Below, piece after piece: positions 3,999 through 53,299 of a stretch of 64,000 bases of DNA (the first letter of the stretch is position 1; every line of letters begins with the position of its first letter). The DNA lies in contig CAXXVD010000001.1 of NCBI GenBank assembly GCA_963662335.2, forward strand, positions 352,001 through 416,000, in the 5' to 3' direction. The translations under genes and the position numbers were made by a program. The notes under the pieces were generated by a model. It was not told where the DNA came from, did not search any database, and saw only the letters and a list, made by a program, of their open reading frames with translations. The DNA comes from Chloroflexota bacterium (GTDB lineage Bacteria; Chloroflexota; UBA11872; VXOZ01).

Positions 3999-4171
3999 CA
4001 TCGTTGCCGCATTGAAATGGGATGGGGTTCCAACAGCGCCTCCAATCGGCCTGCCAATTTGAGTAGGGGCACGACGTGTCGTGCCCCTACGCCCTAATGC
4101 GTGAATCACAAGGGTTTCAGCAGTGCACAATCGCTTCCGTTCTTGACGCGGCGGTTCATGCAACAGCATTG
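3999..4171. mobile_element. Degenerate MITE related to the 163-bp element, carrying a perfect GTAG palindrome
   Basis: Ends CATCGTTGCCGCATTGAA / TTCATGCAACAGCATTG resemble the YAATGYTGTCGCATTAA TIR; internal GTAGGGGCACGAC..GTCGTGCCCCTAC also occurs at 41797. Confidence 0.5.
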
Positions 4172-9457: not shown

Positions 9458-9616
9458 TCCCTACCGCCTATTGCGCCAAAGGAACGCGCCCCGGTCCGCC
9501 ACTCGCGCCCGGCGAGTATCCTGGACGCTTTCCACCCCCCAAGCATACCACCTACCACGTAGCGCGGGGGCTTATCCCTAATGCTGTCGCATTAACGTAG
9601 CGCGGGGGCTTGTCCC

Positions 9617-9779
9617 TAATGCTGTCGCATTAACGTAGCGCGGGGGCTTGTCCCCCGCCAGAACATAAAGAAAAGCACACGCAAAGGATTGACCCTACAG
9701 TCTCGCAGGTTGCAAACCTGCGCTACCGGAGATGCGAGGCGTGGTTCTCATCGCCATTGAGTCTAATGCGACAGCATTG
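9617..9779. mobile_element. 163-bp MITE with 17-bp TIRs and 11-bp target duplication inside a REP
   Basis: TAATGCTGTCGCATTAA ... CTAATGCGACAGCATTG flanked by GGGCTTGTCCC at 9606-9616 and 9780-9790. Confidence 0.85.
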
Positions 9780-9846
9780 GGGCTTGTCCCCCGCTCTTGG
9801 CGTAGTTCCCTCTCCCTGGGAGAGGGTTAGGGTGAGGGGAATCCGC

Positions 9847-25442: not shown

Positions 25443-25527
25443 CGGTAGTGTCTCCTCATTCAGGCATGTGCGTTAGTCTGCGGGGCTAATCAGGTTCGCG
25501 ACCGCGTTCGGCGCAGACGGCCAGGTA

Positions 25528-25702
25528 GTCGCATTAACGTAGCGCGGGGGCTTGTCCCCCGCCAGAGCCAGTGAAAGTGACATGCAAAGGATTGACCTAA
25601 ATGCTTCGCAGGTTACAAACCTGCGCTACCAGAGATTTCGGACACGAGTTTTGTTGTCTCTATGTCTTATGCGACAGCATTAGGGACAAGCCCCCGTGCT
25701 AC
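25528..25702. mobile_element. MITE copy with truncated left TIR plus flanking half-REP
   Basis: GTCGCATTAAC-REP...GCAGGTTACAAACCTGCGCTAC...TGCGACAGCATTA|GGGACAAGCCC. Confidence 0.75.
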
Positions 25703-40538: not shown

Positions 40539-41636
40539 ATGCCCATGGATTTCATGACTCGCGCTCTCAACCTTGCGGAGCGGGCGCAAGGTCGCACGTC
40601 TCCAAATCCCGCTGTCGGCGCTGTGATCGCGCGGGACGGCGTTGTGGTCGGGGAAGGGTTCACGCAGCCGCCCGGACGGGCTCACGCCGAGGTCATGGCG
40701 CTGGAACAAGCCGGGGCGGCTACCAGGGGCGCTGACCTCTACGTGACGCTCGAGCCCTGCGCGTTTTACGGACGCACGCCGCCCTGCGCGGACGCCATCA
40801 TCGCGGCCGGTATCGCGCGCGTGCACGTGGGCGTGCTCGACCCGCATCCGCAGGTCAACGGGCAGGGCGCGGCGCGTCTCCGCGCCGCCGGTATCGCGGT
40901 TGACGTGGGCGTCAAGGGCGCGCAGGCCCGGCGCTGCCACGAGGCGTATCTCTATAGCGTGCAGAGCGGCCGGCCGTTTGTGACGTTGAAGATGGCGATG
41001 AGCGCCGACGGCAAAGCGGCCGGCGGTGAAACACGGTATTTGACTAGTCAAGCGGCCCTCACGCACGTCCATGAATTGCGCGACCGCAGCGACGCGATCG
41101 TGGCCGGCGTCGGCACGGTGACTGCCGACGACCCGCGCTTGACGACGCGCCTGGCGCGGCCCGACGTGCGGCATCCCCGGCGCTTCATCCTGGATAGCCG
41201 CGGCCGAACGCCGCTGAATGCCCGCGTCCTGCAGCCGGACCTCCCCGGCCAAACCACAATCGTTACCACAGAAGCGGCCCCGGCGGAGCGGCTGCGGCAG
41301 TTCCGGGCGTGCGGCGTAGACGTGTGGCCGCTGCCGGCGTCAAAAGGCCGCATCGACCTGGCGGAATTCTTGCGCGCACTCCACGCGGCCGGCGTTCGCT
41401 CGGCGCTGCTGGAGGGCGGCCCGACCCTGGCCGCGGCATTCCTGAACCAAAACCACGTGCGAAAGTTCCTGCTCTTCGTCGCGCCGCTCCTGGTCGGCAA
41501 CGATGTTGCGCCGCCGCTGCTGGACGGACACGGCGCCGGCACGCTAGCTGCGGCGCGGCGGTTCCACTTTACTTCAGTTAAGCGCATCGGCCCCGACGTG
41601 CTCCTGGCCGCGTACCTCCATGGTGGCGGGGGCTAG
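40539..41636 (+). CDS. ribD: Riboflavin biosynthesis deaminase/reductase
   Basis: PNPAVG, HAE, TLEPC....RTPPC, DDP.LT.R, LEGG. Confidence 0.95.
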   Translation: MPMDFMTRALNLAERAQGRTSPNPAVGAVIARDGVVVGEGFTQPPGRAHAEVMALEQAGAATRGADLYVTLEPCAFYGRTPPCADAIIAAGIARVHVGVLDPHPQVNGQGAARLRAAGIAVDVGVKGAQARRCHEAYLYSVQSGRPFVTLKMAMSADGKAAGGETRYLTSQAALTHVHELRDRSDAIVAGVGTVTADDPRLTTRLARPDVRHPRRFILDSRGRTPLNARVLQPDLPGQTTIVTTEAAPAERLRQFRACGVDVWPLPASKGRIDLAEFLRALHAAGVRSALLEGGPTLAAAFLNQNHVRKFLLFVAPLLVGNDVAPPLLDGHGAGTLAAARRFHFTSVKRIGPDVLLAAYLHGGGG

Positions 41637-41639
41637 GCG

Positions 41640-42014
41640 CGCCGCCGCAGCCATTGAAACAGACATGTAGAGGATTGACCTGCAAGATTCGCAGGTTACA
41701 AACCTGCGCTACCGGAGACTTCGGACGCGAGATTTGCTGTCTTTCTGTTTGCTGCGACAGCATCAGGGGCAAGCCCCCGTGCTCCGGCGAAACGGCGTAG
41801 GGGCACGACATGTCGTGCCCCTACGCCTGTTGGCAAACGAGGCAAGGGTGTTCTTGTGACGCCCTTCCAAGCAAGTGCGACAGCAGCGGGGGACAAGCCC
41901 CCGCGCTACGATGTGGCGAAGAGGCGGGGGACGAGCCCCCGCGCTACGGTTTGCGCAAGAGGCGGGGGACTAGCCCCCGCGCCACGGTTTGGCCAAGAGG
42001 CGGGGGACAAGCCC
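41640..42014. repeat. REP/MITE cluster between ribD and ribE
   Basis: Degenerate MITE body (about 41645-41766), GTAG palindrome at 41797-41824, four tandem GCGGGGGACAAGCCCCCGCGCTAC-type units from about 41886. Confidence 0.85.
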
Positions 42015-42177
42015 CAATGTTGTCGCATTAACGTAGCGCGGGGGCTAGTCCCCCGCCGGAGCCATTGAAACTGACACGAAAGAGAATTGACCTAACAGCC
42101 TCGCAGGTTACAAACCTGCGCTACCAGAAGTCTGGGACGCGAGTTTTGCCGTCTCTTTGTTTAATGCGACAACATTA
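42015..42177. mobile_element. 163-bp MITE with 11-bp target duplication inside a REP
   Basis: CAATGTTGTCGCATTAA ... TTAATGCGACAACATTA flanked by GGGACAAGCCC at 42004-42014 and 42178-42188. Confidence 0.88.
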
Positions 42178-42277
42178 GGGACAAGCCCCCGCGCTACGGC
42201 GTGCCAATTGGGGGCGGACTGCGCGCCCGGGGTCTCCCAGAGCCGGTATAATCGAAAGAAAGACACGGGAGCGCGGC

Positions 42278-52940: not shown

Positions 52941-53299
52941 CAATATAGTCGCATTAACGTAGCGCGGGGGCTTGTCCCCCGCCGGAGTAAAGCACGGGGA
53001 CTCGTCCCCCCGCCGGAGTAACGCGCGGGGGCTTGTCCCCCGCCAGAGCAAAAGAAAAGCACACGCAAAGGATTGACCCTACAGCCTCGCAGGTTGCAAA
53101 CCTGCGCTACCGGAGATGCGAGGCGTGGTTCTCATCGCCATTGAGTTTAATGCGACAGCATTGGGGCTTGTCCCCCGCCGGAGCTATTGAAACTGGCTCG
53201 CAAAGGATTGACCTAACAACTTCATAGGTTTCACAACCTGCGCTACTGGAGACTTGAGACGCGGGTTTTGCAGCCGCTCTGTTTAACGCGACAGCATTG
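52941..53299. mobile_element. Nested/tandem MITE composite
   Basis: One left TIR (CAATATAGTCGCATTAA), three REPs, a body nearly identical to 9617-9779 ending at 53163, then GGGCTTGTCCCCCGCC plus a second body and right TIR ending at 53299. Confidence 0.82.

Follow-up and report, generated by a model that had tools for sequence, protein, structure and literature searches.

The stretch of DNA analysed here (the window) comprises 64,000 nucleotides of an uncultured Chloroflexota bacterium (assembly GCA_963662335.2, contig CAXXVD010000001.1, positions 352,001 to 416,000 of the forward strand) and contains two copies of a putative MITE (a miniature transposable element with inverted repeats) of 163 bp. 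Copy A (9617-9779) is located just beyond the 3' end of a gene for a major facilitator superfamily (MFS) transporter and copy B occupies positions 42015-42177; both are bounded by terminal inverted repeats of 17-18 nt. The left end of both copies reads T/C-AATG(C/T)TGTCGCATTA-A and the right end is its inverse; the outermost base, C or T, varies among copies, and each terminus is a small palindrome by itself (TAATGC-tgtc-GCATTA). The flanks of each copy form an exact 11-bp direct repeat, GGGCTTGTCCC at 9606-9616 and 9780-9790 for copy A and GGGACAAGCCC at 42004-42014 and 42178-42188 for copy B. Both 11-mers represent the core (3 bp of stem, 5-nt loop, 3 bp of stem) of a repetitive extragenic palindromic (REP) sequence, denoted REP1, which is a 24-nt hairpin, GTAGCGC-GGGGG-CTTGT-CCCCC-GC. 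The loop of REP1 is asymmetric and has the same orientation in both flanks, so the repeats are true direct duplications of the target, not an artefact of hairpin symmetry. The target REP1 copies of the two insertions are oppositely oriented, and the interiors of the two elements are collinear. Each interior includes a complete REP1 that starts 2 bases past the left terminus and, about 46 nt further, an inverted copy of a second REP, REP2; both are headed by GTAGCGC. As single-stranded DNA, copy A is predicted to fold with -43.7 kcal/mol (z = -4.2).

The 15-nt core of the terminus, with at most 2 mismatches, occurs 10 times in the window against an expectation of 0.08, and none of 100 shuffled sequences reached this number. 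The search was extended to the complete assembly, a metagenome-assembled genome (MAG) of the Chloroflexota lineage (3.23 Mb, 5 contigs, 64.5% G+C, 96% complete), in which 134 terminus-like sites were detected at the same threshold. In 83 of these, the outward flank is directly one half of a REP1, in either orientation; nine sites abut a GGGTGAGGG/CCCTCACCC repeat, four a GGTTCGCGAAC palindrome, and the remaining 38 other sequences, many of which are decayed REP1 variants and a few unique. REP1 itself is present in 510 copies at up to 3 mismatches, including 372 exact 24-mers (the reversed genome yields 3 matches at up to 5 mismatches). Because REP1 accounts for only about 0.4% of the genome yet abuts 83 of the 134 termini, the target preference is strong. 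The nine termini of the minority target lie next to the repeat CCCTCTCCC..GGGAGAGGGTTAGGGTGAGGGG, with 10-bp duplications such as CCCCTCACCC; this repeat also occurs at 9811-9840 in the window and in many other places in the genome. For two MITE copies (C2:519983-520177 and C2:750604-750766; positions outside the window are given by contig), the target is another palindrome headed by GTAG, GGGGCGGTTCGCGAACCGCCCC, and the duplications, GTTCGCGAAC, are 10 bp long; this palindrome may be a third REP type.

A profile derived from 26 full-length copies of the MITE, which is 160-223 bp long and has no coding capacity, yields 403 non-overlapping hits in the genome. Both termini are present in 50 of these, the right terminus only in 44 more (27 starting at the head of REP1, 14 starting inside REP1 and 3 others), the left terminus only, together with at least 60 model positions, in 13, and REP1 with REP2 but neither terminus in 29; the rest are single REPs, short matches to the left terminus plus REP1, or unclassified. 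Hits that span at least 90 positions add up to 18.8 kb. Solo units of a left terminus and a REP1 do exist at several places in the genome, but the 52 short hits of this type overstate their number; the inner 9-mer of the terminus is found just upstream of 67 of the 510 REP1 copies and the full core upstream of 44.

An IS4-family partner and the insertion record

The cognate autonomous element is present in a sister species of the same genus (genome G011), which carries four copies of a 1194-bp insertion sequence (IS), three of them differing by 3-8 nt. The ends of this IS, CAATG(C/T)TGTCGCATTAA, correspond to those of the MITEs in the window, (T/C)AATG(C/T)TGTCGCATTAA, and its one open reading frame (ORF) encodes a 367-aa DDE transposase. 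The protein matches the Pfam domain DDE_Tnp_1 (PF01609; 81.8 bits, cut-off 23, E = 7e-23) and the NCBIfam model NF033592 'IS4 family transposase' (156.9 bits, cut-off 115); the next best family model, IS701, reaches 44 bits against a cut-off of 170, and the neighbouring families are far below their cut-offs. The Y(2)R(3)E(6)K motif is present as YRKRWQIELFFRWLK, both in the 367-aa ORF and in a broken copy in the genome under study, and the IS end CAATGTTGTCGCATTA fits the consensus -AATR--------WTW at positions 2-5 and 14-16. All four ISs split the REP1 hairpin at the same place and are flanked by exact 11-bp duplications; one of them has hit a REP1 with a variant loop (GGGCTCGTCCC), and its two flanks agree in this variant. 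The MITE and the IS share only the terminal 17-18 nt, apart from a weak subterminal resemblance. We conclude that the 163-bp element is very probably a non-autonomous MITE derivative of the 1194-bp IS, which belongs to the IS4 subgroup of the IS4 family.

In the genome that includes the window, two IS remnants with the same ends were identified (C2:441580-442637 and C3:445030-445786), both encoding frameshifted, internally deleted pieces of the DDE transposase with the motif YRKRWQIELFFRWLK; the remnant on C2 is flanked by duplications of a REP1 variant. When a transposase piece was used as a protein query against 41 genomes, matches were obtained only in this genome and in the sister species, and none in the other 39. 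More distant relatives of the transposase, with 37-57% identity, are encoded in elements of about 1200-1460 bp in MAGs of other Chloroflexia, Thermomicrobiales and Rubrobacteraceae (loci L016-L024); these keep the end motif (C/T)AAYGNTGTCGCA and 9-11-bp duplications, and the targets of several are hairpin-like or GTAG-headed palindromes. Insertion into hairpins may therefore characterise the transposase clade as a whole.

Among the 41 pairs of facing termini in the genome under study, 10 are flanked by an exact 11-bp duplication, 3 by one with a single mismatch and 4 by one with two mismatches (17 of 41 at up to 2 mismatches). Where REP1 is found on both sides, about 16 pairs are direct and 2 are inverted, as judged by eye, and both inverted pairs are nested arrangements. 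The most telling cases are the duplications outside REP1: the copy at C5:640040-640201 has an exact 11-bp duplication, CGGGCATTCTC, for which the probability by chance is about 1 in 4^11, and the copy at C2:819388-819549 is flanked by GGGAACCACCC and GGGAGCCACCC. Comparison of the C5 site across 17 genomes of the genus showed conserved flanking genes, with intergenic divergence that hides the exact site of insertion. The orientation of the target relative to the element, for the copies with both termini, is the same in 18, opposite in 12 and other in 20.

The sister species provides a cleaner record. All 15 MITEs sampled there, which were selected for their similarity to copy A and the adjoining flank and are accordingly biased for orientation and subfamily, are 162 bp long and reside in REP1 with exact 11-bp duplications; together with the four ISs, all 19 elements show the exact duplication, and loop variants among their targets match on both sides of the insert. 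An apparent orientation bias, with the left end at the GTAG half of the target in 15 of the 15 MITEs, was considered and discarded, the sample having been picked by similarity to copy A and its flank. Pairwise identity among the MITEs of the sister species has a median of 95% and a maximum of 100%, compared to a median of 81% and a maximum of 95% in the genome under study, and a median of 74% between the two genomes. These values fit recent activity in the sister species, an old, dead family in the genome under study, and separate amplifications in each lineage.

For 12 insertions of the sister species, both flanks could be mapped to a small interval of the genome under study. At 4 of these 12 loci (L006, with an IS, and L038, L041 and L051, each with a MITE), this genome has an uninterrupted REP1 in matching flank context; at the other mapped loci, the intergenic DNA is unrelated. 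Conversely, at the place of copy A the sister species has an uninterrupted REP1, with the same CCCTCTCCC...GGGTGAGGGG repeat following shortly downstream. The intergenic cluster of about 620 bp at 41619-42241, which consists of a decayed MITE, three free REP1s and copy B, corresponds to an orthologous spacer of about 46 bp in the sister species; thus, the whole cluster was built, or lost, since the split of the two species. In four short-read runs of one study, the unique flanks of copy A were recovered at full identity in contigs that stop near 9596-9605 and restart near 9772-9818; no contig in these runs bridges the site, filled or empty.

The original prediction for this DNA, which was made from the sequence of the window, is for the most part borne out by these results. 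The two 163-bp elements with inverted termini and exact 11-bp duplications of a REP core are present where it placed them, each with a fresh REP and a second REP type inside, and the IS4-type character that it read from the ends and from duplications in the range of 10-13 bp agrees with the published signature of the subgroup, the duplications here being 11 bp long. The three outcomes that it named as refuting were each examined, and none refuted it: the 11-bp duplication recurs across the family, a cognate IS with the same ends exists in the lineage, and intact REP1s are present at orthologous loci, matched by position and flank. The additional copies reported at about 25528, 41645 and 52941 are real but incomplete or variant, being truncated, decayed and 223 bp long, respectively (Table 1). 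The table also lists an IS-type terminus remnant that is located near the locus where the sister species has a whole IS, in the opposite orientation; the two were first assumed to result from the same event, which, given this difference in orientation, is no more than a possibility.

Table 1. Copies of the element, their targets and related features, in positions of the window
Feature	Positions	Strand	Description
IS-type terminus remnant	4156..4171	-	15-mer with 2 mismatches; the next letters, ACCGC, recur at one end of the full IS
REP1 variant, 5' part	9559..9578	+	GTAGCGCGGGGGCTTATCCC; abuts the first left terminus
38-bp half unit	9579..9616	+	Left terminus 9579-9596 and first 20 nt of REP1 9597-9616
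MITE copy A	9617..9779	+	163 bp; left terminus 9617-9633, REP1 9635-9658, inverted REP2 9705-9726, right terminus 9763-9779
Target REP1 of copy A, 3' part	9780..9794	+	9780-9790 is the right 11-bp duplication GGGCTTGTCCC
MITE copy, truncated	25525..25682	+	Left terminus truncated; right end abuts a REP1 half
MITE copy, decayed	41626..41765	+	Model positions 24-161; no left terminus, REP1 degenerate
Free REP1 copies	41886..41985	-	Array of three copies spaced by 38 bp; the REP1 struck by copy B follows shortly after
Left duplication of copy B	42004..42014	+	11 bp, GGGACAAGCCC; target REP1 oppositely oriented
MITE copy B	42015..42177	+	163 bp; REP1 42033-42056, inverted REP2 42103-42124
Right duplication of copy B	42178..42197	+	Duplication 42178-42188 and remainder of the target REP1
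MITE variant	52941..53163	+	223 bp; additional REP1-like hairpins past the left terminus
MITE copy, partial	53164..53299	+	From model position 27 (within REP1) onward; adjoins the right terminus of the copy before it

Contribution of the element to the REP population

In the mechanism that we propose, the DDE transposase encoded by the IS would bind the 17-18-nt terminal inverted repeats and would move the MITE in trans. The two strands of the target would be cut 11 bp apart, symmetrically about the dyad of the REP1 hairpin, GCGGGGG-CTTGT-CCCCCGC, which is probably recognised through its two symmetric arms, and repair of the stagger would double the GGG-loop-CCC segment, leaving one copy on each side of the insert. 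Since the body of the MITE is an inverted REP1/REP2 doublet with spacers, each jump adds a REP1 and a REP2 to the genome.

The REP1 brought in by a MITE can in turn be hit. Among 14 copies whose start is at model position ~27, 12 are directly preceded by the terminus of another element, and this start coincides with the cut position in a free REP1, which indicates that cargo REP1s have served as targets. The junction at 53163/53164 in the window represents one such insertion into a MITE-borne REP1. When the target and the cargo REP1 point the same way, an insertion is expected to create 20-bp direct repeats spaced by 38 bp, across which the 38-bp left part of the element could be lost or duplicated. 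Loss would give rise to copies without the left terminus, and the half unit at 9579-9616, which is in tandem with the start of copy A and whose last 11 nt (9606-9616) constitute the left target duplication of that copy, would be the reciprocal or nested form. The flank orientation of the 27 copies that begin at the head of REP1 is the same in 20 cases, opposite in 1 and neither in 6, and the 20 cases are those predicted by loss of one 38-bp direct-repeat unit.

The genome under study encodes a single REP-associated tyrosine transposase (RAYT) at C2:168671-169159, which is 70% identical to the 163-aa RAYT encoded beside one of the ISs in the sister species (L006:2459-2950; NF047646, 95.9 bits, cut-off 80). 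Each of the two genomes has one such gene, flanked by inverted copies of REP1, which identifies REP1 as the cognate repeat of the RAYT and as a classical RAYT-type REP. Only REP1 flanks this gene, and the REP1 and REP2 of the MITE cargo are different sequences. In the sister species, a REP1 located some 120 bp upstream of this gene is interrupted by a full copy of the IS.

The share of REPs that reside in MITE DNA differs between the two types. For REP1, 134 of the 510 copies (26%) belong to terminus-bearing MITE hits and 115 to hits of at least 90 model positions, compared to 88 (44%) and 115 (57%), respectively, of the 201 copies of REP2. Thus, the MITE adds to the spread of REPs and does not replace the RAYT. 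In the 26 aligned copies, mean column identity is 99.4% for the cargo REP1 (4 of 650 cells deviate from the consensus), 94% for REP2, about 90% for the termini and 81% for the remaining 79 columns, and the free copies of REP1 are as uniform as the cargo; across the genome, 372 of 577 REP1 hits are exact. Selection on the hairpin, conversion among hundreds of copies and replacement linked to the RAYT could each explain this invariance. A BIME-like array (bacterial interspersed mosaic element) of tandem REP1 and REP2 pairs with a period of 118 bp and no element termini is found at C1:517301-517732; such an array is a possible source of the MITE cargo.

Weighing the alternatives

Several observations weigh against the derivation of the MITE from an IS4-type element, in addition to the bias of the sister-species sample. 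Searches of all 5 contigs of this assembly by tblastn and blastn recovered fragments of the transposase gene but no intact one; at 1194 bp in all four copies, the IS is smaller than the 1400-1650 bp of the subgroup; and 24 of the 41 facing pairs have 3 or more mismatches in the fixed 11-bp register. The stem of REP1 continues as G/C, so the duplication can be read as 11 to 13 bp, and the orthologous intergenic DNA is very divergent, such that the term 'empty sites' denotes agreement in position and flank instead of base-level alignment. Furthermore, the evidence is wholly comparative, without an observed transposition. The 24 discordant pairs include 10-bp duplications in another register (GTTCGCGAAC, CCCCTCACCC, AGGTGAGGGG), one-base offsets, both IS remnants, nested arrangements and a few unresolved cases; we read them as other-register duplications, offsets, nested or recombined copies and decay, although not every case is resolved. 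In principle, the structures could also form without any DDE transposition, as a BIME-like mosaic of three palindromes (terminus, REP1 and REP2) assembled by the RAYT or by recombination, with the apparent duplications being simply the halves of a REP. The palindromic nature of each terminus, the tandem REP1/REP2 arrays without termini, such as the one on C1, the 29 hits with both REPs and neither terminus, and the presence of a RAYT are all in line with such a mosaic. However, a DDE transposase gene is found between the same 18-nt ends in four near-identical copies, the loop, which is asymmetric, is repeated in direct orientation, variants of the loop agree between the two flanks, and exact or near-exact duplications also occur at non-REP sites; to our knowledge, HUH tyrosine transposases of the IS200/IS605 type make no target duplication. 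A mosaic origin is therefore largely refuted and appears extremely improbable.

Given the derivation of the MITE from the IS, the question becomes what the REP cargo does. On one reading, which we regard as possible but far from established, the DDE element uses RAYT-type REPs and also transports them: it would need REP1 as a site to land on and would have seeded most of REP2 and a quarter of REP1, with selection or conversion linked to the RAYT actively preserving the cargo REP1 as the columns outside the termini and REPs decay, and with a self-reinforcing supply of targets building nested arrays until the transposase was lost. In an alternative, the MITE is a genuine IS4-type element but its cargo is passive: the RAYT spreads and homogenises the REPs, the MITE parasitises them, and the feedback adds nothing measurable. 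This alternative is favoured by the 376 of 510 REP1 copies (74%) that lie outside terminus-bearing MITE hits. The extreme uniformity of REP1 across the genome, the inverted REP1 copies around the RAYT gene and the equal targeting of REP1 by the full IS, which has no REP cargo, point in this direction as well, whereas the 44-57% of REP2 that is in MITE-family DNA, the 12 junctions at which a cargo REP1 was struck, and the gap between the cargo REP1 (99.4%) and the non-terminus, non-REP columns (81%) point away from it; on balance, we consider purely passive cargo rather unlikely. A different question is whether the family has stopped moving. Continued mobility in the genome under study, through an unassembled transposase copy or a distant relative acting in trans, would be compatible with the 96% completeness of the assembly, IS copies being often lost from assemblies in general, and with the 95% identity of the most similar pair of copies. 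The transposase gene is represented in the 5 contigs by fragments only, none of which is located at a contig end, and the median identity of the copies is 81% compared to 95% in the sister species with its intact IS; hence continued mobility seems improbable. As only broken remnants of the transposase remain, we infer that the family is now immobile in this genome, and it is probably still active in the sister species.

The original prediction described a feedback loop in which a DDE-mobilised element spreads REPs normally attributed to the RAYT and so manufactures new target sites. The REP cargo and the nested junctions agree with this description, and the loop exists qualitatively; in this genome, however, it appears extinct, a fossil, and its quantitative weight and present activity are unproven. 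The element does add to the spread of REPs, but a RAYT is present and 74% of REP1 is outside MITE DNA.

Relation to known systems

REPs are usually viewed as products of RAYTs and as sites at which ISs land, without a role of their own. In the present case, a MITE of the DDE type takes REPs to new places and is then struck at the REP that it brought, so part of the REP population can owe its spread to a second, unrelated transposase; if this is true, a single 24-nt hairpin links transposition systems of two unrelated kinds. The interplay of REPs, RAYTs and ISs is thereby extended to uncultured Chloroflexota, and breaks of short-read assemblies in these organisms are accounted for by REP/MITE sites. 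With an IS of 1.2 kb, a MITE of 163 bp and a target of 24 nt, this is a compact, testable system for the recognition of hairpin targets by IS4-type transposases.

Insertion of ISs into REPs has been documented for members of the IS3, IS110, IS4, IS256 and IS5 families, and REP-specific elements include IS1397 and ISKpn1 of the IS3 family as well as IS621, ISPpu9, ISPpu10 and ISPa11 of the IS110 family (PMC1525189, Tobes and Pareja 2006; PMC3184786, Delihas 2011). ISPsy8 makes a 3-bp duplication and ISPa11 none (PMC1525189). These IS3- and IS110-family elements encode transposases of other families than the one described here, and the accounts of them in the sources cited do not describe a REP-bearing MITE derivative. 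GTAG-headed REPs have been reported in Chloroflexi (PMC3733652).

The IS4 subgroup is characterised by the ends -AATR--------WTW, direct repeats of 10-13 bp, the YREK motif and a length of 1400-1650 bp, and for some of its members a conspicuous specificity in both target arms, left and right, has been noted (PMC2266710, De Palmenaer et al. 2008). The present IS resembles the subgroup, as outlined in that paper, in its DDE transposase with Y(2)R(3)E(6)K, its fitting ends and its 11-bp repeats; it differs in its length of 1194 bp, its uncultured Chloroflexota host, its RAYT-type GTAG REP target and its REP-carrying MITE. A precedent for the targeting is ISRm22 of Sinorhizobium meliloti, an IS4-family element all copies of which are located at the symmetry axis of a REP palindrome with 6-bp direct repeats (PMC1525189), and which has been placed in the subgroup IS4Sa (PMC2266710). 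The insertion of an IS4-family element at the REP axis is common to both cases; the length of the repeats and the subgroup differ, and the passages on ISRm22 in these papers describe neither a MITE derivative nor REP cargo.

The arrangement of REPs in the MITE recalls the inverted pairs of GTAG-headed REPs known as REP doublets forming hairpins (REPINs), which are associated with RAYTs (Bertels and Rainey 2011, PMC3116915; PMC3337134), and a single RAYT flanked by inverted REP1s is found here as well. Unlike REPINs, the element combines two different REPs about 46 nt apart with DDE-type terminal repeats and 11-bp duplications. The mobility of REPINs by means of RAYTs is, as far as we know, expected to generate neither DDE-type terminal repeats nor 11-bp duplications.

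A precedent for the cargo comes from Coxiella burnetii, in which QMITE2, a MITE of 150-190 bp with direct repeats of 7-11 nt, contains a GTAG REP that is used as a target by IS1111, and truncated copies of QMITE2 that lack about 40 nt at one end resemble plain REPs (PMC5896051, Wachter et al. 2018; PMC10969869, Minnick 2024). In that system, as described in these sources, IS1111 is not the enzyme thought to move QMITE2, nor the IS whose ends QMITE2 carries, whereas here the cargo REP is targeted by the transposase family to which the MITE itself belongs, which makes the element its own target. IS1111 itself is a member of the IS110 family. In the full-text literature searched, a collection that is incomplete and does not include ISfinder, no MITE was found to have been described with its own transposase's preferred target inside it. 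Both IS4 elements that target REPs (ISRm22) and a MITE that bears a REP (QMITE2) have been described before; the system in the window is not a new kind of mobile element and all its components belong to known classes, and it is the combination in one MITE of REP cargo with the target of its own transposase that appears to be new.

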